From Patescibacteria group bacterium (lineage in GTDB: Bacteria > Patescibacteriota > Patescibacteriia > UBA9934), in NCBI GenBank assembly GCA_018896835.1, contig JAHILS010000078.1:1-37328 (forward strand): a DNA stretch of 37,328 bases, written 5' to 3'. Shown one piece after another: positions 8,312 through 30,109 of the stretch. A program made the position numbers and the translations under genes. Within the stretch, counting starts at the first letter, position 1; each line of letters starts with the position of its first letter. The notes beneath the pieces are model-generated. The model was given only the letters and a program-made list of their open reading frames with translations, ran no database searches and had not been told where the DNA came from.

Positions 8312-8348
8312 ATAATAAAGTAACTTTTATAAGCGATGTATTTTAAGC

Positions 8349-12431: not shown

Positions 12432-12440
12432 ATAGAAAGC

Positions 12441-15400
12441 TTAGCGGTTGTTTTGTGATTTTGTATCCATATCAATTGCCTCTCCATCCTTTAAAAGCTC
12501 TACGTCTAGACAAAGACCTTTAAGCTCTCGGATAAGAACATTGAATGATTCTGGAATATTGACCTTGTGAATTGGCTCGCCCTTAATGATTGACTCGTAT
12601 GCTTTGGAACGACCTAGAATATCATCTGATTTAATGGTCAAAATTTCCTGGAGCGTATGAGCAGCGCCATAGGCTTCAAGTGCCCAAACTTCCATTTCTC
12701 CAAAACGCTGTCCACCAAATTGAGCCTTACCTCCTAAAGGCTGTTGGGTGATGAGCGAGTAAGGACCAATTGATCGTTGGTGCATCTTATCTTCAACCAT
12801 GTGATTGAGCTTAAGCATGTACATGATTCCAACTGTAATCTTGTTATCAAATGCGTCCCCAGAACGACCATCGTGAAGAATCATCTGTCCGCTTTCGTCA
12901 AAGCCTGCTTTGACTAACTCTTCTCTAATAGTTGACTCTGAAATACCAGCGAAAATCGGTGAGGCGACGTGATAGCTAAGTGCGTCAGCTGCAAGACCAA
13001 GGTGAACTTCCAAAATCTGTCCAAGGTTCATACGTGAAACGACTCCAAGTGGAGTGAGGATAACGTCCATTGTTCGACCCTCAAGGGTAAACGGCATGTC
13101 CTCAACCGGAACAACCTTAGAAACAACACCTTTGTTTCCGTGTCGTCCCGCCATTTTGTCACCAACCTGCATTTTTCGCAGATCGGCAATTGTCACTTGA
13201 ATCGATTTAACAACTCCGGCTGGCAAATTGTCACCTTCTTCGCGAGTAAAGATCTTAATATCAACTACCTTGCCCTTATTGCCGTGTTGCATGTACATTG
13301 ATGAATCTCGAACATCGCGCGCTTTTTCTCCAAAGATTGCTCGGAGCAATTTTTCTTCAGCCGAAAGTTCGGTTTCACCTTTTGGAGTAATTTTTCCAAC
13401 TAATATGTCACCTGATTTAACCTCAGCTCCAATGCGGATAATTCCTTCAAGATCAAGATTTTTAAGTTTTTCTTCAGAAACGTTTGGAATGTCAGAAGTT
13501 ATCACCTCAGGTCCAAGCTTTGTATCACGCACATCAAGTGTGTGATGTTCTAAGTGAATTGTAGTAAAACGATCAGCCTGAACAACGCGCTCGGAAAGAA
13601 TAATAGCGTCTTCATAGTTGTAACCGTCCCAACTCATAAATGCCACGAGCATATTTTGACCAAGAGCAAGTTCTCCTTGATCAACTGAAGGTCCGTCAGC
13701 CAAAATGTCTCCGGCACTGACTATTTCTCCTGCTAAAACAACTGGGCGTTGGTTGATTGATGTTGAGTGGTTTGAACGTTGGAATTTATTCAAGATATAA
13801 ACTGCTTCTCCAGACTTCTTGTAATTTACAACGATCTTTCCACCGTCTGCATATGTCACCTCTCCATCTTCTTGCGCTACTAAAACGTGACCAGAGTCAA
13901 CCGCAGCTCGGCGTTCTCGTCCAGTACCAATCCGAGGAGCTTGAGGATTGATTGGAGGAACAGCCTGACGTTGCATGTTTGATCCCATCAAGGCTCGAGT
14001 GGCGTCGTCATGCTCCAAAAATGGAATAAGAGACGTTCCAATTGAAACGATTTGCGCCGATGAAACATCGATATAATTTATTTCTGTTGCCGGAACGAGC
14101 TGCGCATTACCATGCTTTCGCGCCTCAACCATTTCTGTTTGAATGTATCCATCTTCTGTAATTTTAATTGTTGAAGGACATGTCACAGACTTCTCTTCCT
14201 TAAAAGCGTTTACGTATTCAATCTGGTCTGTAATTTTCATTCTGCCGTTTTCATTAACAACCTTACGATAAGGAGTCTCGATAAATCCATACTTATTGAT
14301 GCGAGCATAACTTGCTAGCTGACCAACAAGTCCAATGTTTGGACCTTCAGGAGTTTGCACAGGACAAATGCGTCCATAGTGAGTAGTGTGCACGTCACGA
14401 ACTTCAAATCCAGCGCGCTCACGAGAAAGACCACCCTGTCCAAGAGCTGAAAGTCGTCGCTTGTGCTCTAATTCTGCCAAAGGGTTTGTTTGATCCATGA
14501 ACTGCGAAAGCTGGGACGACATAAAGAACTCTCTTACCGAACCGATGACCGGACGTGCGTTTATCAATCGCCCTGGTGTAATTGATTCAATATCCTGCGT
14601 GCTCATACGATCACGCACAATGCGCTCCATGCGAGCAAGTCCAATACGGAAACGTCCTTGCAAAAGCTCACCCACAGCACGAACTCGACGATTTCCAAGG
14701 TGATCAACGTCATCTGGTTCGCCTTGTGAAATGTTCAATGAAATGATTTCACGAATAATATCAACCAAATCTTCCTTTGTAAGTATTCTTTTTGCTTCAT
14801 CTTGTACGCCAACTTCTGGATTGTCACGGTTAAATCTTGTATTAAATTTATAACGACCAACTGGACCAAGGTCATAGCGATCAAAATTGAAAAACATGGA
14901 ATGAATCAACTGACGAGCGTTGTCCGCGGTTGCCAAGTCACCTGGTCGAATACGCTTATAAACCTCCTTTAAACCTTCTTCTTCGTTTGTGGAAGCATCT
15001 TTGGCAATTGTTGACTCTATGTAATTACTGAGAGGATGGTTGTCCACGTCTTTAAATAAAGATAGTATTTCCTCATCTGTAAAATACCCGAACGATCGCA
15101 AAAGTGCAGTTACTGCGACTTTTCGCTTGCGGTCAATCTTCACCCAAATAACATTTTTCGCATCAGTTTCAAATTCTAGCCATGCGCCTCTATTTGGAAT
15201 AATCTTGGCTCCATAATAACGTCGTCCGCGTACTACTTCGGCTGTGAAAAATGCCCCTGCAGAACGGACAAGCTGTGAAACAACAACTCGTTCCGAGCCG
15301 TTAACAATGAACGTACCTCGGTCAGTCATGACAGGAAGGTCGCCTAAGAAAATTTCTTGCTCTTTAGCTTCCTTAGTTCGTAAATTGGTCAAAATTGCCT

Positions 15401-15677
15401 TAACACGCAACGGAGCCTCATAAGTAATATTCTTATTTTTTGAGGTTTGCTCATCGAATTTTGGCTCGTCTACAAAATACTCGCCAAAAGACAGCTCTAG
15501 ATCCCGTCCAATAAAATCACCAATCGGTGACACCTCACTAAGAAGCTCAGCAATGCCTTCCTTTAAAAACCACTCATATGAGGCTTTTTGCACCTCAATT
15601 AGGTTAGGTAGGTCCATTGCATCCTTAACTTGAGTAAAATACTTGCGCTCACGAACATTAGTTGCGATTTTGGCCAT
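12441..15677 (-). CDS. rpoB: DNA-directed RNA polymerase subunit beta
   Basis: 1078 aa with conserved beta-subunit blocks ([31 protein letters not shown]). It ends 9 nt before the rpoC start. Confidence 0.98.
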
Positions 15678-15889
15678 ATGCTATAAACAAAAACTGCCTC
15701 ATTACATGGATGAAGCTTATTTAATTTTTTGGTTGTCTATCTCTAAGCACCACAAAAAGTGACTTGTAGCGGTTAGAGGAAGGTGTTTTGGGGGTCACCT
15801 GCTCGTTTCTTATGGGTGAATTTAGGTAATCTTAGCCCCTTTTACTTTGTAATGTGGGCTGCTTTATTACCCTGCCATAAAGCGTCGCA

Positions 15890-15919
15890 ATTATAGCAGA
15901 CACTCTATGCATTGGTCAA
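15890..15919 (-). promoter_or_regulatory. Putative sigma70 promoter for rpoBC, giving a leader of about 200 nt
   Basis: Minus strand reads TTGACC (15919..15914), an 18-nt spacer, then TATAAT (15895..15890). The rpoB ATG is at 15677. Confidence 0.5.
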
Positions 15920-15927
15920 ATAAAACC

Positions 15928-15987
15928 GGGGTCAGGGCTCTAACTTTGAATTTTTTATGAATTATTCAAAGTTAGAGCCCTGACCCC
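15928..15987 (-). terminator. Very long perfect hairpin (24-bp stem), terminator-like on the minus strand
   Basis: GGGGTCAGGGCTCTAACTTTGAAT (15928-15951) pairs perfectly with ATTCAAAGTTAGAGCCCTGACCCC (15964-15987). On the minus strand the stem is followed by GGTTTTATTTG. Confidence 0.6.
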
Positions 15988-15996
15988 AAAATATAT

Positions 15997-16145
15997 TTGT
16001 TCTGTAAGAACTGCAGGGAAAAGACTTGAAGAAACCAGGCCAATGCTTGCGAACATGAAGAGAGAGATCCTTGCAAGAAGCAAGGTGTTCGGACGTTGAT
16101 CTGGGATATTTAGCTTATCCCCGCAGTTTTTACAGAACAGATTAC
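15997..16145 (-). ncRNA. Candidate structured sRNA (rod-like; 6S RNA is one possibility) between recA and rpoB
   Basis: It has its own promoter (16152-16180) and its own terminator (15928-15987). A closing helix of about 20 bp pairs 16119-16140 with 15997-16018. Internal hairpin CCTTGC-ttctt-GCAAGG and CGAACA/TGTTCG pairing flank large internal loops. There is no credible ORF. Confidence 0.35.
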
Positions 16146-16151
16146 AAAAAG

Positions 16152-16180
16152 AGTATATCCAAATTCATAATTTATGACAA
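16152..16180 (-). promoter_or_regulatory. Putative sigma70 promoter of the candidate sRNA
   Basis: Minus strand reads TTGTCA (16180..16175), a 17-nt spacer, then TATACT (16157..16152). It lies just downstream of the recA terminator. Confidence 0.45.
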
Positions 16181-16194
16181 CCTAAAAACTAATC

Positions 16195-16228
16195 AAAAAC
16201 CCCACATTTTAATGTCTAGTGGGGTTTT
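16195..16228 (-). terminator. Rho-independent terminator of recA
   Basis: Minus strand reads AAAACCCCAC-loop-GTGGGGTTTTT. It begins about 12 nt after the recA stop (16240). Confidence 0.7.
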
Positions 16229-16239
16229 GTGTCTGTTAA

Positions 16240-17244
16240 TCAAGCTTCCTTCATCTTTTCTTCTGTACTCTTTCGAATATCGGCAAAGGATTTTTTATTA
16301 TCCATTAAGTATCGACGCGCCACTTCACGACCGACTCCAAGCTTTTCTTCGCCAAACAAATAGGTATTGCCACGTTTTTCTATTGTTCCAACTTGCACTC
16401 CAACGTCGAGCAAGTCTCCTGACGTTGAAATTCCTTCATTATACATAATGTCAAACTCGCAAGTTCTAAAAGGAGGAGCGACCTTATTTTTTACAATTTT
16501 TGCCTTTACACGATTTCCAATAATCTGCTCACCCTGTTTAATCTGCGCAGCTCGACGGACCTCGATACGTAATGATGAGTAAAATTTAAGTGCATTTCCA
16601 CCAGACGTTGTTTCTGGATTTCCAAACATGACGCCGATCTTATGACGTATTTGGTTAATGAAAATAACAGTAGTATGTGATTTGGAAACAATTCCCGCCA
16701 GCTTGCGAAGTGCCTGGCTCATCAATCTTGCCTGTAGGCCGATATGTTGATCACCCATATCACCTTCAATTTCCGCCCGCGGGGTCAAAGCAGCTACCGA
16801 ATCAATAACAATAACATCAACCGCACTTGATCTCACGAGCGTATCAACTATCTCGAGCGCTTGTTCGCCATTATCTGGCTGTGAAATAAATAACTCTTCG
16901 ATGTTTACTCCAATTTTTTCCGCATACTCTGGGTCAAGTGCATGTTCTGCGTCCACAAAGGCTGCCACTCCGCCCAACCTTTGAGCCTCGGCCACAATAT
17001 GCTGAGCTAACGTTGTTTTACCGGACGATTCTGGTCCGTATATTTCAATAATTCTTCCTCGAGGAACGCCACCAACACCAAGGGCGATGTCCAATGACAA
17101 GCATCCTGTGGATATTGATTCGATTTGCATAGCTTTGGCCTCACCAAGACGCATGATTGAACCTTCACCAAAACGTTGTTTAATTTGAGATATGGCGTCG
17201 TCTGCCGCCTGGAACCTTGCTTTTTGTTCGTCTACTTTTGACAT
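16240..17244 (-). CDS. recA: Recombinase A
   Basis: 334 aa with Walker [12 protein letters not shown] and L1/L2 loop blocks ([28 protein letters not shown]). Confidence 0.98.
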
Positions 17245-21230: not shown

Positions 21231-21245
21231 TGTACGTCCACGTTG

Positions 21246-21272
21246 TCCCCACCCAGCACTCTGCGGTGGGGA
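21246..21272 (+). terminator. GC-rich hairpin after the PP2C gene
   Basis: TCCCCACC-loop-GGTGGGGA lies 16 nt after the stop. The T-tract is weak (TTACTG). Confidence 0.45.
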
Positions 21273-21534
21273 TTACTGCATAAAATTACGATACTAGGAT
21301 CACTACTTAAACATCCCACTACCCCTCTAGGAGAGCTTTTTGCATTTATCGAGGGCAAGCCATAATTTTTTATGACGTTGACACAGGCTAATTTTTCTTA
21401 TGAGGTTGCTTTCGCACAACCCGCTCCTTGGAAGGAGAACCAGATGATGCGAAAGCAAAAGACGTTTATTATGGTGAGTAGCATGGGTGAAATGAACCCT
21501 ACCGGTGCCTGACCCCAGAAACCCCAGAAACATA

Positions 21535-21574
21535 ATTTGCCACATAGTGCGCGATCGGACACTTTATGGCTAAA
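21535..21574. repeat. Degenerate copy of the CGATCG-core palindrome (family 2)
   Basis: ATTTGCCACATAGTGCGCGATCGGACACTTTATGGCTAAA matches the 30070-30109 palindrome at 32 of 40 positions by my hand alignment. Confidence 0.6.
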
Positions 21575-21612
21575 ATAAACAAACAGCCACTAGGCCGAGG
21601 TCGAAAAAATTA

Positions 21613-21681
21613 GGGTCAAGGCTCTATTTTTCAAAAATTGATCAAAAAATTGATCAAAAAGTAATAACTCGAGCCTCGACC
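21613..21681. repeat. Degenerate relative of the 15928-15987 hairpin, with an AT-rich tandem repeat in its loop
   Basis: 5' arm GGGTCAAGGCTCTA resembles GGGTCAGGGCTCTA, and 3' arm GAGCCTCGACC resembles GAGCCCTGACC. The loop carries CAAAAATTGAT/CAAAAAATTGAT in tandem (21632-21654). On the minus strand it is followed by TAATTTTTTCGA. Confidence 0.5.
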
Positions 21682-21689
21682 TTAAACAC

Positions 21690-21715
21690 AAAACAACCTC
21701 GTGGGAGGTTGTTTT
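21690..21715 (-). terminator. Rho-independent terminator of efp
   Basis: AAAACAACCTC-gtgg-GAGGTTGTTTT is a perfect 11-bp stem, 8 nt beyond the efp stop. T-rich sequence follows on the minus strand. Confidence 0.75.
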
Positions 21716-21723
21716 GATAATGA

Positions 21724-24873: not shown

Positions 24874-25995
24874 ATGAGGAACATCCTCAACGTCATCCGT
24901 CAAATCTCGATCAATGTCTGGCACGGGATGTGCCGGTGGACCCCTGTGGTGGCTTCGGCCATCTGGGCGTTCACTGCAAAGTGGACGCCGGTCGTCTGGT
25001 CATACGCGATCATCGTGATCGTCTGGATCGGACGAGCCCTCTGGAGCACCACGAAATTCGTGGGCCGGCTCATCCGGACCACTGCAATCAATCCCATGCG
25101 CCAGAACACCAAAGTCTGGCTCTTCGGGAACATCTGGGGCGCAATCTTCTGCGCTCTGATGGTGACGGGATTCACCATCTTCTACGGACCGGTGGAAAGC
25201 CCAGTGCCAGAAGGCCCTGACATCGGTGGTGTTGACATCGATCCACCAGTGAAGCCTGGCGAGCCTGCCGTATGTGGCGACGCATGCGTCAAGGAAATTC
25301 GCAATTCGCGCTCAAAGCTCCGTGGCATCGAGAAAGAAGAATTGCGATATGTCCTGGAGGAATACAATAGCTACGTAGCGTCCGAGACCTGGCGCCAACG
25401 CGCACAGTCATGCCACCAGAACTACTGGGAGCACTTCCAGAAGGCAGAGGAGATCACGCTCTACCCGAGCGAACTCCTCGCTGGCAAGGCTTTGATCGAG
25501 GGCGCTGGATGCAAATTCATTACCGCAACAAACGGCGACGGCGGGATCGGGCCAATGCAGATCACACACCCGGTATCTGGCCACATCAACGCCACCGCAC
25601 GACTGCTTGGCACCACAAGCGACGGCGTGCAGTACAGGAGCGACTATCTGCACAACGTGCTCCTGGGCGCTGTCATGTTCTCGGACTTCGAGGACATGTT
25701 CGGAAGTCGTGGCGTTGGGATTCTCGCCTACAACCGCGGACCTGGAAATGTCCGCAGGGACATGCGACGCGCGGGACTCAACAGCTATATGCGTCGTGTG
25801 ATCTCCGACTTCCGTGGCGGAATCCCGGAGCATGCTGGAAAAGGTGGCCGCCCTCGCGTATATGCGGACAAGGTTCTGGCCGGAATGGTCATGATGTACC
25901 GTGTCTCGCATGGGCTTCCGCTCGAACCACTCACCAAGCTAACACTCGACGACATTCCTGGTGCGGATCCATCGCAAGATGGAAAGGATCGCTAG
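24874..25995 (+). CDS. Membrane-anchored lytic transglycosylase (SLT-domain) protein (high-GC cassette B)
   Basis: N-terminal hydrophobic segments are followed by SLT motifs in order: ALIEGAGC (catalytic Glu context), GGIGPMQIT and ILAYNRGPGN. The ORF track starts at 24805, but the promoter and SD favour 24874. Confidence 0.7.
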   Translation: MRNILNVIRQISINVWHGMCRWTPVVASAIWAFTAKWTPVVWSYAIIVIVWIGRALWSTTKFVGRLIRTTAINPMRQNTKVWLFGNIWGAIFCALMVTGFTIFYGPVESPVPEGPDIGGVDIDPPVKPGEPAVCGDACVKEIRNSRSKLRGIEKEELRYVLEEYNSYVASETWRQRAQSCHQNYWEHFQKAEEITLYPSELLAGKALIEGAGCKFITATNGDGGIGPMQITHPVSGHINATARLLGTTSDGVQYRSDYLHNVLLGAVMFSDFEDMFGSRGVGILAYNRGPGNVRRDMRRAGLNSYMRRVISDFRGGIPEHAGKGGRPRVYADKVLAGMVMMYRVSHGLPLEPLTKLTLDDIPGADPSQDGKDR

Positions 25996-26007
25996 GAAAC
26001 TACTCAA

Positions 26008-26134: not shown

Positions 26135-26170
26135 TGGCTCACTTTGGGCCGATCGGACCAAAGTGAGCCA
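26135..26170. repeat. 36-nt CGATCG-core palindrome, family 1, copy 1
   Basis: TGGCTCACTTTGG-G-CCGATCGG-A-CCAAAGTGAGCCA has 13-bp arms and one G/A mismatch. It is identical to 26732-26767 and ends 18 nt before the ATG at 26189. Confidence 0.9.
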
Positions 26171-26710: not shown

Positions 26711-26731
26711 CAATCAGATTATCAACAAGAT

Positions 26732-26767
26732 TGGCTCACTTTGGGCCGATCGGACCAAAGTGAGCCA
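26732..26767. repeat. 36-nt CGATCG-core palindrome, family 1, copy 2
   Basis: Identical 36-mer lying between the stop of the 26189-26710 ORF and the stop of convergent ychF. Confidence 0.9.
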
Positions 26768-26816
26768 ATTGAATAAAATAACCCCACAAATTAAAACAAA
26801 AATCTTATACAAAGAA

Positions 26817-27998: not shown

Positions 27999-28031
27999 AT
28001 AATTGACCTGTCAATTATATTTTGATAAAAA
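27999..28031 (+). promoter_or_regulatory. Putative promoter of cassette C overlapped by a 20-bp palindrome (possible operator)
   Basis: TTGACC (28003-28008), a 17-nt spacer, then TAAAAA (28026-28031). The palindrome ATAATTGAC-ct-GTCAATTAT spans 27999-28018. GAGG lies 6 nt before the ATG at 28071. Confidence 0.35.
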
Positions 28032-28070
28032 AGAAGCGGTTTCGATCACCCCCAAACCCATGAGGACACC

Positions 28071-28598
28071 ATGGATCACCTGATCATCGAAGAACTCCAG
28101 GCTTTCTTCTTCCGCGCCATGCTCCAGGGCTGGATCACGGGAAAGAAGGCCAAGCCGATCGAAGGCCTGCCTGGCTACAAGGGCTTCCGACACCAAGAGG
28201 ATGCGGGAGGGTACAAGCTCCTGCTCGTCGACGCCTGGTGTAGTGGCATGGACGACTACTCCTCCGGCTTCACCACGATCTACACCTCTCCCAAGGACAC
28301 CGACGACGGCAAGCCGATCTGGACTCCGGTCTGGACCATGAACTACATGGGTCACTACGATGAGGGGGAAATCATCGTCGTGATGGATGCGCTACGCCAG
28401 GCCTATCGTACCAGGCAATTCATCGGTGGCCGAGGACTAAACTCGGTCAGGTGTGGTAACTTGCGCTACTCCAACAGAACTGGTCATACGGCCTGCTTCG
28501 AATCCTTCGACGGCATCGAGCATGTCGAAAGTAGTAAACGCACTCCCGGCTTCCATGAATACTCCGGTGGGGTGCTCTTCGACCACAAGAAGAAGTAA
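28071..28598 (+). CDS. Hypothetical protein, DUF5680-like by pattern (high-GC cassette C)
   Basis: 175 aa. The spacing of conserved aromatic and Gly residues (W.MNY.G..., GGRG..., Y.N...G....F.G.E, Y.GG) resembles DUF5680 as I recall it. This was not verified. Confidence 0.45.
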   Translation: MDHLIIEELQAFFFRAMLQGWITGKKAKPIEGLPGYKGFRHQEDAGGYKLLLVDAWCSGMDDYSSGFTTIYTSPKDTDDGKPIWTPVWTMNYMGHYDEGEIIVVMDALRQAYRTRQFIGGRGLNSVRCGNLRYSNRTGHTACFESFDGIEHVESSKRTPGFHEYSGGVLFDHKKK

Positions 28599-28640
28599 GC
28601 GTCACCCAATTTCGTCATCCGTCCTTCGGGACGAGTCCGT

Positions 28641-28666
28641 GCCCTGCGCCACCACTGGCGCGGGGC
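28641..28666 (+). terminator. GC-rich terminator of cassette C
   Basis: GCCCTGCGCC-accact-GGCGCGGGGC is followed by TTATTGCTTTC. Confidence 0.6.
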
Positions 28667-28794
28667 TTATTGCTTTCAAATTATTTTTCATACTTTGGAC
28701 GATCGTCAACTTTATGAAAAATTTATTTTAGAAAAATGCCTATTATCCACATTATTGATGTTCGTATACAAAATACAGGATGATGAACGGTCGA

Positions 28795-28823
28795 TTGACA
28801 GATAGCATATTTACAGCTAATAT
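28795..28823 (+). promoter_or_regulatory. Near-consensus sigma70 promoter of cassette D
   Basis: TTGACA (28795-28800), a 17-nt spacer, then TAATAT (28818-28823). GGAG lies upstream of the ATG at 28892. Confidence 0.55.
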
Positions 28824-28891
28824 TTGCTATCAGCTCTTTCTCACTTCCATCAACGGTACACCGTCAGCGTACCAAACCTCCGGAGAACGCC

Positions 28892-30004
28892 ATGTCCTTC
28901 CTCATCGTCCTCTTCATCCTCATCGGTTCCATATTCGCGCAGGACCTGACGGTCATGCAGGCCCACAAGACCTACGGGCTCTTGGTGGCTACCGAGAGCT
29001 TCGCGGAGTCAGAGCTGTCGCGCCCGAATGCGACGGCCCTGTGCTCCAAGAACGTGCTGGCTCTCTACAAGTCCATGCCGTTCTCGCAGATCACCAACCT
29101 GTGCAAGCCAGAGGACGCCACCCGCGCCAGCATCCTGGCCTCGGCCAGGCAGATTCAGGAATGCGCCCAGGCGGGCGACACCGTCCTGTTCTTGTTCACT
29201 GGAATGGGCGTAGGTGGAGACTTTGGTGAGCCCATGTTGCTCACCTATGACTCTGCGTTCACTTCTGAAGCAATGGCAGGAACGTCCATCAGGATCGACG
29301 AGCTCACCTCTGTCCTGTCCAAGGACGGAGTGCAGATCATCATGCTGTTGGATGCGTCGCTCAACACCAAGTTCGACCTGGTGACTGACAGTGATCCGCA
29401 ATTGATGACCACCGCGGGCCCGATCGCATCGGACGTGCCGGGCAAATACCTGTCTCTCTCCTACGCACCCAGCGTTGGAGTATGGCCACAAGATCCCGAC
29501 CTGTTTGGCAACACGCTCGCGCACGCGCTCGGTGGCGCGGCCGATGCCAACAGTGACGACACGATCACGCCCGGCGAGATCAACCGCTTCATGGTCGAAC
29601 AGATCAACACCCAAACTGGGATGCCCCCGGGCGTGCGCGGTGAGTGGAGGTCGGCGACCGAACCGATCCTCACGCTCAAGCCAGAACAAGAGCTGGCGAT
29701 CGGGTTTCCCGAACCTCATTCGTGGCGACCGATGGTCTCGCCGACCGTAAAGCGCACGGCCATTATCAGCGGAGCGTCGATGCTCGCGATCGGCGGGGCG
29801 AGCTTCGCACTTTCCTGGCGGGCGCAGAAGTGCCTGGAGGAAGTCTGCTACCAAAACCGTGACGAGTACGACTCCGCGGTTTCCCAGCGCAATGCCTTCC
29901 TCTGGGTAACCAGAGGAGCAAGTACGCTCGGCGCAATCGGACTGGGCGGAGGTCTCGTCCTCCAACCCAACAGTGCCAGCTTGAGCCTCACGGCTCGCTG
30001 GTAA
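28892..30004 (+). CDS. Secreted, C-terminally membrane-anchored caspase-like (peptidase C14 fold) protein lacking the catalytic His/Cys dyad (high-GC cassette D)
   Basis: 370 aa with a signal peptide MSFLIVLFILIGSIFAQD. The caspase-domain layout is YGLLVA...DAT...GDTVLFLFTGMG...LLTYD...IIMLLDAS. The usual SGHG is TGMG and D(A/S)C is DAS. Two hydrophobic helices lie near the C-terminus. Confidence 0.5.
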   Translation: MSFLIVLFILIGSIFAQDLTVMQAHKTYGLLVATESFAESELSRPNATALCSKNVLALYKSMPFSQITNLCKPEDATRASILASARQIQECAQAGDTVLFLFTGMGVGGDFGEPMLLTYDSAFTSEAMAGTSIRIDELTSVLSKDGVQIIMLLDASLNTKFDLVTDSDPQLMTTAGPIASDVPGKYLSLSYAPSVGVWPQDPDLFGNTLAHALGGAADANSDDTITPGEINRFMVEQINTQTGMPPGVRGEWRSATEPILTLKPEQELAIGFPEPHSWRPMVSPTVKRTAIISGASMLAIGGASFALSWRAQKCLEEVCYQNRDEYDSAVSQRNAFLWVTRGASTLGAIGLGGGLVLQPNSASLSLTARW

Positions 30005-30069: not shown

Positions 30070-30109
30070 ATTTGCCATATAGTGTTCGATCGAGCACTAT
30101 ATGGCAAAT
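30070..30109. repeat. 40-nt CGATCG-core palindrome, family 2
   Basis: ATTTGCCATATAGTG-T-TCGATCGA-G-CACTATATGGCAAAT has perfect 15-bp arms. It lies between the cassette D terminator and the stop of the convergent TPR membrane gene. Confidence 0.9.

Follow-up and report, generated by a model that had tools for sequence, protein, structure and literature searches.

The DNA analyzed here is a stretch of 37,328 nucleotides from a member of the Patescibacteria, to which we refer as the window. Pfam searches identified recA (16240-17244) and rpoB (12441-15677) as the genes flanking the intergenic region described below, with rpoC, ftsK and a gene coding for a RodZ-like HTH protein also around the locus. 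The closest RecA sequences carry the annotation Candidatus Uhrbacteria, Parcubacteria or Patescibacteria. Three public contigs code for a RecA identical to that of the window, and their intergenic regions are also identical save for an extra TC in one of them (L082). Between the two genes we have found the features of a putative small RNA (sRNA) gene, listed here from its upstream to its downstream end:

16195-16228, minus strand: recA terminator, CCCCAC...GTGGGG followed by TTTTT; upstream bound of the unit
16152-16180, minus strand: sRNA promoter of sigma-70 type, TTGTCA (16180-16175), a 17-nt spacer and TATACT (16157-16152)
15994-16145, minus strand: rod-shaped non-coding RNA of ~150 nt, the core of the family, from its fold, covariance model scores and covariation
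16119-16140, minus strand: closing helix P1/P2, 5' strand, including ACUGCGGGG at 16119-16127
16086-16091 and 16050-16055, minus strand: inner helix CGAACA/TGTTCG
16069-16085, minus strand: apical hairpin P6, CCUUGC-UUCUU-GCAAGG
16056-16068, minus strand: one-sided bulge of C and U only, AUCUCUCUCUUCA, adjoining the apical hairpin
16027-16034, minus strand: second pyrimidine-rich single strand, UUUCUUCA, on the 3' side of the mid-rod internal loop
15997-16018, minus strand: closing helix P1/P2, 3' strand, including CCCUGCAGU at 16010-16018
15916-15987, minus strand: sRNA intrinsic terminator, a 24-bp perfect hairpin (15928-15987) followed by GGUUUUAUUUGA
15890-15919, minus strand: rpoB promoter, TTGACC-18-TATAAT with extended TG; downstream bound of the unit

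The sRNA promoter (16180-16152) matches the consensus at 10 of 12 positions, and its TATACT and TTGT are kept in the related contigs L084 and L091. From this promoter, the start of the sRNA is predicted near G16145/A16143. At the other end, the inverted repeat of the terminator has arms of 24 nt that are 100% complementary (15928-15951/15964-15987), followed by the run GGTTTTATTTG, which overlaps the -35 of the rpoB promoter. The latter is conserved in L084, and on visual inspection L090 and L095 show the same arrangement, TTGAC(C/G) ... TATACT. When the window was aligned with L084, L085, L086 and L091 (RecA 91% identical), a clean gap of ~70 nt appeared whose limits are exactly those of the 24-bp hairpin with its adjoining nucleotides, and the rod of these four contigs therefore abuts the rpoB -35. 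Read from this alignment, the terminator hairpin is part of a ~70-nt insertion seen in the window species alone. The gap indicates that the conserved RNA is the ~150-nt rod, and that the promoter-to-terminator unit of ~225 nt is peculiar to the window species. The first-pass annotation had placed on the minus strand the recA terminator, the sRNA promoter, the paired ends, the apical and inner helices and the 24-bp hairpin, and we have found all of them at those positions or next to them. Its size of 200-230 nt holds for the primary transcript of the window species only, the RNA that is conserved being of ~150-165 nt.

The possibility that the terminator hairpin is a repeated mobile element was discarded, since the window contains a single copy of it, the nearest thing to a second one being a weak and partial resemblance at 21599-21651. 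This last site is found within a 490-nt gene-free spacer (21231-21723) between a PP2C phosphatase gene and efp. The spacer, especially at 21599-21690, contains a long imperfect hairpin with an arm, GGGTCAAGGCTCTA, that resembles the arm GGGTCAGGGCTCTA of the sRNA terminator, together with a tandem duplication of AAAAATTGATCAAAAA and a terminator-like hairpin (21690-21715). Further along the window there are four near-perfect palindromes of 36-40 bp (26135-26170, 26730-26769, 28683-28722 and 30070-30109) with a common centre ...CGA|TCG..., two of them sharing the arm TGGCTCACTTTGGGCCGA. They adjoin islands of 51-61% G+C (~25000-26000 and ~28000-30000) in a window of ~42% G+C. One of the islands encodes an ORF with an SLT domain and the others gave no Pfam match. 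Foreign or mobile DNA, or else a mosaic produced in the assembly, could account for this region.

The rod (15994-16145) folds with a free energy of -58.6 kcal/mol, compared with -28.5 +/- 3.6 for dinucleotide shuffles (z = -8.4, none of 200 shuffles being as good), and when the terminator was included in the fold the z value reached -13.5. In order to find relatives we collected contigs through RecA homologues of 82-92% identity, among which the rod was found in L084/L085/L086, L091, L087/L088/L089/L093, L090, L094, L095-L097, L105 and L106. A covariance model built on this close set (R1) added L001, L003, L006, L007 and L020, and a second one (R2) added L005 and L016; the window rod scores 148 bits with R1 and 126 bits with R2. 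Altogether, nhmmer and covariance models retrieved 15 distinct homologues in Patescibacteria contigs (listed as window, L084, L091, L087/L093, L090, L094, L095, L001, L003, L006, L007, L020, L005, L016, L105 and L106). In a RecA-anchored scan of the genome contigs, the nearest species representative had 79% RecA identity and no recA-rpoB synteny. BLAST and nhmmer found no homologue in it, and one was detected by the covariance models only. A scan of metagenome contigs with the pattern of the invariant core gave back the known lineages plus a match in L102, located within GC-rich coding DNA, that we consider due to chance. Another covariance model match, L012 9398-9551, was also rejected as unrelated to the family. 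It is a 28-bp perfect inverted repeat, picked up on both strands, in which GTAGGAACGCGCCGCGGCGCGTTCTG... flanks an A/C-rich spacer of ~95 nt, and it may be a small mobile element.

The substitutions found among these homologues preserve the pairing. In the close set, RNAalifold predicted 41 pairs, and compensatory double changes were seen in 20 of these. Over 11 lineages, 34 of 43 pairs had changed on both sides and 89.4% of the alignment cells were paired, a value that fell to 39-46% when the 3' partners were slid by 1-3 columns. The covariation score was 0.66 (0.12-0.19 in the slid controls), and none of 500 shuffles reached the observed values. Taken with the z values of the fold, these compensatory substitutions indicate that the pairing of the rod goes beyond chance. 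The conservation of the closing helix in related genomes, put forward in the first-pass annotation as a check of the gene, was thus confirmed. Furthermore, G·U pairs clearly outnumber A·C mismatches in the family (77 vs. 13), identifying the minus strand of the window as the RNA strand. A consensus scan showed a terminator-like site on the plus strand (16103-16121, GGGATATTTAGCTTATCCC and then CGCAGTTTTT), which lies opposite the 5' half of the sRNA. We found no promoter on the plus strand, and the asymmetry between G·U and A·C argues against this strand being the functional RNA.

We also considered that the transcript could be an mRNA coding for a small hydrophobic peptide such as a type I toxin. 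The sole plausible ORF in the sRNA strand codes for 33 amino acids from an ATG at 16056 (MFASIGLVSSSLFPAVLTEQIYFGVRALTLNNS), and an AAGGA motif and this AUG are sequestered in helices P6 and P5. However, the ATG is a TTG in L084 and L091, the frame is lost after seven codons by a 1-nt indel (L084), and no ORF or peptide, in either strand, is common to the 11 homologues examined. Pfam gave no match, and it is base pairing and not codons that governs the substitutions. A coding function was therefore rejected, and we give it practically no credit. Pfam also gave nothing for the 125 amino acids encoded by the plus-strand ORF at 16071-16448, already regarded as unconvincing on first reading, which continues into recA in antisense.

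The distance from the end of a promoter-like site on the correct strand to the model start is 9 nt in the window and in L006, 8 nt in L020 and 6 nt in L007, and in L016 a similar site ends 26 nt before the RNA. Intrinsic terminators are located directly after the rod in L003 and L016, and could be recognized by eye in L006, L007 and L087, where UUGUUUUUU comes after the closing helix of the last. No terminator was seen between the rod and the rpoB promoter in L084 and L091, and visual inspection of L090 and L095 revealed no obvious one, so in these four contigs the RNA may be read through or processed.

The RNA is always near the core cluster ftsK-HTH-recA-rpoB, but its position is not fixed to any one gene. 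In the window, L084, L091, L095, L105 and L106 it occupies the interval from recA to rpoB, with the same orientation as these genes. In L090 and L094 it is upstream of rpoB, also in the same orientation, with other genes separating it from recA. In L087/L093 it lies between two genes of the opposite strand with no rpoB nearby, in L005/L016 it lies upstream of ftsK and diverges from rpoB, and in L003, L006, L007 and L020 it is convergent with the HTH gene. This distribution is relevant to the possibility that the RNA is a cis-acting leader of rpoB, transcribed from a distal promoter and either controlling the read-through into rpoB or processed from its mRNA. Such a leader would be consistent with the eight cases (window, L084, L091, L090, L094, L095, L105 and L106) in which the RNA has the orientation of rpoB and is located ~270-600 nt upstream, and with the lack of a terminator between rod and rpoB promoter in L084/L091. 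Nevertheless, a leader would be expected to keep one position and one orientation upstream of the gene that it regulates, and this is not what we observe. The RNA of L087/L093 has no rpoB downstream, that of L005/L016 points away from it, and those of L003/L006/L007/L020 are elsewhere with their own promoter and terminator. In the window species a strong terminator separates rod and rpoB, and the predicted pairing of the RNA with the rpoB leader is not better than random. The shifting gene position, together with the conserved promoter that rpoB has of its own directly after the rod, argues against a cis-regulatory leader, which we regard as very unlikely.

The actual 5' leader of rpoB, of ~210 nt, is itself strongly conserved (window 15678-15889, minus strand, with counterparts at L084 4282-4503, L090 5046-5256, L094 11995-12223 and L095 9345-9563). 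It contains an invariant AGGUGACCCCC(A)AAACACCU hairpin, and its 5' end, CGCUUUA, can pair at long range with UAAUGAGGCG, which closely precedes the start codon. As an alternative, a terminator-like hairpin, GCUUCAUCCAUGUAAUGAGGC with its U-run (15686-15716), is found directly before the ATG. RNAalifold predicted 34 pairs in this leader, 13 of them with compensatory changes, and the comparison with Rfam gave no match. To judge from these predicted structures, it looks like an attenuator or a riboswitch-like control of the expression of the RNA polymerase beta subunit.

Two of the properties expected from an independent trans-encoded sRNA gene are thus found at the rod, namely a promoter and a terminator of its own, on the strand indicated by the structure, and a fold maintained by compensatory substitutions. 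The existence of a discrete sRNA gene, as proposed in the first-pass annotation, is supported by conservation, covariation, strand asymmetry, the promoters and terminators of the homologues and the lack of a conserved ORF; the conserved small protein that might have taken its place was looked for among 11 homologues and none was shared. We conclude, with a probability of roughly 90%, that this is an independent, conserved and structured sRNA of a new family. The family is conserved in an Uhrbacteria-related clade of the Patescibacteria and is uncatalogued in Rfam 15.

The members of the family are about 146-170 nt long and share the same anatomy, a rod of ~55 bp overall in which two further helices accompany the closing helix and the apical hairpin. 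The closing helix is of ~30 bp, with an outer part that co-varies freely and an inner part that holds a CUGC/GCAG box, of which ACUGCGGGG/CCCUGCAGU is the reading in the subfamily of the window. The CUGC of the former and the GCAG of the latter are invariant in all 11 aligned homologues, and the pair adjoining the box is G·U in seven of them. At the other end, the apical hairpin varies across the family in sequence and in length (5-14 bp, 6 bp in the window). Next to it is the best-conserved unpaired element, a strand of 11-15 nt made of C and U only, with a flanking A, for which the family consensus is AUCUCUCUCCUC (AUCUCUCUCCUC(C) in most members other than the window). It forms a one-sided bulge of 0-2 x 11-15 nt across the family, and the window copy (16056-16068) is presumably a functional site. 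The extra TC of the same-species contig L082 (4178-4181) is precisely in the (TC)n run of this strand. In 13 lineages the CU strand is on the 3' side of the apical hairpin, and in L005 (2248-2411, plus strand) and L016 (2315-2484, plus strand) it is on the 5' side, with its composition kept after the move. The mid-rod loop measures only about 5-7 x 6-8 nt, its sequence is not conserved, and in L090/L094 it is largely closed. In the window, its second side is AAAUAUC (16105-16111). Wherever the minimum free energy fold leaves the 3' strand of this loop unpaired it is pyrimidine-rich and G-free, with variants such as UUUCUUCA, CUCCUC, UUCUUUUC and similar.

With these elements we propose the following model. 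Transcription would start from the sigma-70-type promoter a few nucleotides before the ~55-bp rod, and in the window species the primary transcript, of ~225 nt, would carry the species-specific terminator hairpin attached. The rod would be a stable scaffold displaying pyrimidine strands at its tip and at the mid-rod loop, the CUGC/GCAG box would be a recognition site for a protein or an RNase, and the RNA would act in trans with the exposed pyrimidine strands as its working part. The CU strands would most likely serve to base-pair with target RNAs at purine-rich stretches; another possibility is that they hold a protein that binds single-stranded pyrimidines. Selection has kept the rod, the duplex box and CU strands that tolerate permutation and changes in (TC) length, a pattern that fits a display function. 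Besides, the invariance of the helix box suggests recognition by a protein. We consider an action in trans through the CU strands, whatever their partner, as the probable one, with the odds somewhat in its favor; that it takes place specifically by base pairing is plausible but falls short of an even chance.

We searched for complements to the CU strands over the ~37 kb of the window and 7-19 kb per relative and found nothing convincing. In the window the only perfect complement was the opposite strand of the sRNA gene itself, and the duplexes predicted with the rpoB leader were no better than those with shuffled leaders. Besides, the genes of this clade are mostly without a recognizable Shine-Dalgarno sequence and have A/U-rich sequence before their start codons (e.g. 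16245-16270, 12432-12460 and 8312-8340), as seen in the window, L001, L003, L005-L007, L020, L090, L094 and L095. This scarcity weakens the idea of a CU seed that masks ribosome-binding sites, which would have no obvious general substrate here.

The same results give some weight to the alternative that the RNA is a decoy sequestering a protein that recognizes single-stranded pyrimidines. Era or other KH-domain proteins, S1, cold-shock proteins and Rho are candidate partners. In several members the CU strands read GAUC...CCUCC, resembling the 3' tail of the 16S rRNA, and there are two pyrimidine-only patches per molecule. Furthermore, the helix box is invariant in spite of being paired, as would fit a protein contact, the change in (TC) length within the CU tract is tolerated, and convincing targets for base pairing were not found in genomes that are poor in Shine-Dalgarno sequences. 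On the other hand, no candidate protein gene is consistently adjacent, the subfamily of the window lacks CCUCC and reads CUCUCUCUUC, and the proposal is purely inferential. We consider a decoy unlikely, although a good deal less so than the rpoB leader discussed above. Action in trans through the CU strands, by one partner or another, is still the reading that we prefer.

Patescibacteria are a very large uncultured group with small genomes and few known regulators. Our search of the literature on 6S-like or other sRNAs, structured non-coding RNAs and Shine-Dalgarno sequences in Patescibacteria (CPR, Parcubacteria) retrieved nothing relevant, and almost no regulatory RNAs described for this group, the Candidate Phyla Radiation, were found. 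A family supported by covariation in the core neighborhood ftsK-recA-rpoB, with its invariant helix box and its exposed strands of pyrimidines only, is a testable candidate for a global regulator, and should be useful for RNA family databases and for the annotation of Patescibacteria genomes. By itself, one sRNA family overturns nothing, and it could be another orphan sRNA. A more ambitious possibility, to which we attach a rather low likelihood, is that of a housekeeping riboregulator across this clade, either an unorthodox replacement of 6S RNA that binds RNA polymerase or a mimic of the 16S rRNA 3' tail (GAUC...CCUCC). If the latter were true, the RNA would titrate a factor of ribosome biogenesis or translation initiation in organisms where Shine-Dalgarno initiation has been largely abandoned.

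The comparison with Rfam 15 (4227 families) at gathering score, for the whole window and 10 homologous loci, gave no match to 6S RNA or to any other family. Searches at E<=10 with relaxed filters, using the sRNA region and the copy of L003 (631 nt and 279 nt), also gave neither 6S nor SRP RNA. Sub-threshold matches to eukaryotic miRNAs and other hairpins (E<=10), affecting the terminator stem, and a match to the archaeal sRNA162 with 27.6 bits (gathering score 78) were treated as noise. Thus, we do not file the RNA under any known family.

The resemblance to 6S RNA noted at first sight deserves more detail. A 6S-like function would imply that the rod binds the RNA polymerase holoenzyme as a mimic of an open promoter, with the CU strand as template for purine-only product RNAs. 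Like 6S RNA (ssrS), a single-copy RNA of ~150-190 nt, this is an irregular end-paired rod widely conserved within its lineage and with a housekeeping-type promoter, here of sigma-70 type. The length of 146-170 nt and the ~30-bp closing helix are those of an end-paired rod of ~150-200 nt, rpoB is its usual neighbor, its conservation is housekeeping-like, and no canonical 6S RNA was seen in the loci searched. However, neither 6S (RF00013) nor 6S-Flavo (RF01685) was matched at E<=10. The large central bubble with both strands unpaired between two long stems does not appear in the family, where the mid-rod loop is small and unconserved, the large unpaired element is one-sided and proximal to the apex, and the distal helix is of merely 5-14 bp. 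This element is pyrimidine-only and found on either side of the apical hairpin, so that the polarity of the CU strand with respect to the long rod is reversed in L005/L016, something hard to square with directional templating, for which a fixed polarity of the template strand is expected. To our knowledge, an invariant CUGC/GCAG box in the closing helix has not been described for 6S RNA. This RNA is not 6S by any criterion testable here, and the 6S-like class suggested in the first-pass annotation did not hold; we regard a 6S-like function as improbable.

The bacterial small SRP RNA (4.5S; RF00169) is likewise a rod-like hairpin encoded in the core genome, and a superficial resemblance (CAGAUCA..GUCCG) led us to consider it. 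This identity was rejected, as there is no covariance model match (RF00169/RF01854), and a conserved helix-8 apex, with a GNRA-type loop plus symmetric and asymmetric loops, would be expected of an SRP RNA. Actually, the apex is the most conserved part of SRP RNA, whereas in this family it is the most variable in sequence and length. A different kind of similarity can be found with RsaE/RoxS (RF01820), sRNAs of Gram positives with C-rich or CU-rich loops, which also have an independent gene with promoter and intrinsic terminator. In sRNAs of the RsaE/RoxS type the conserved unpaired pyrimidine motifs are seeds against purine-rich sites in mRNAs. In this case, there is no similarity by sequence or covariance model, the ~55-bp rod differs from their ~100 nt with hairpin loops, and the hosts are largely devoid of the Shine-Dalgarno sequences that are the usual targets of such seeds. 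Finally, protein-sponge RNAs such as CsrB/RsmZ are also structured and titrate an RNA-binding protein by means of repeated short single-stranded motifs, but theirs are GGA motifs, while the family described here displays motifs of C and U only, at just two sites per molecule.
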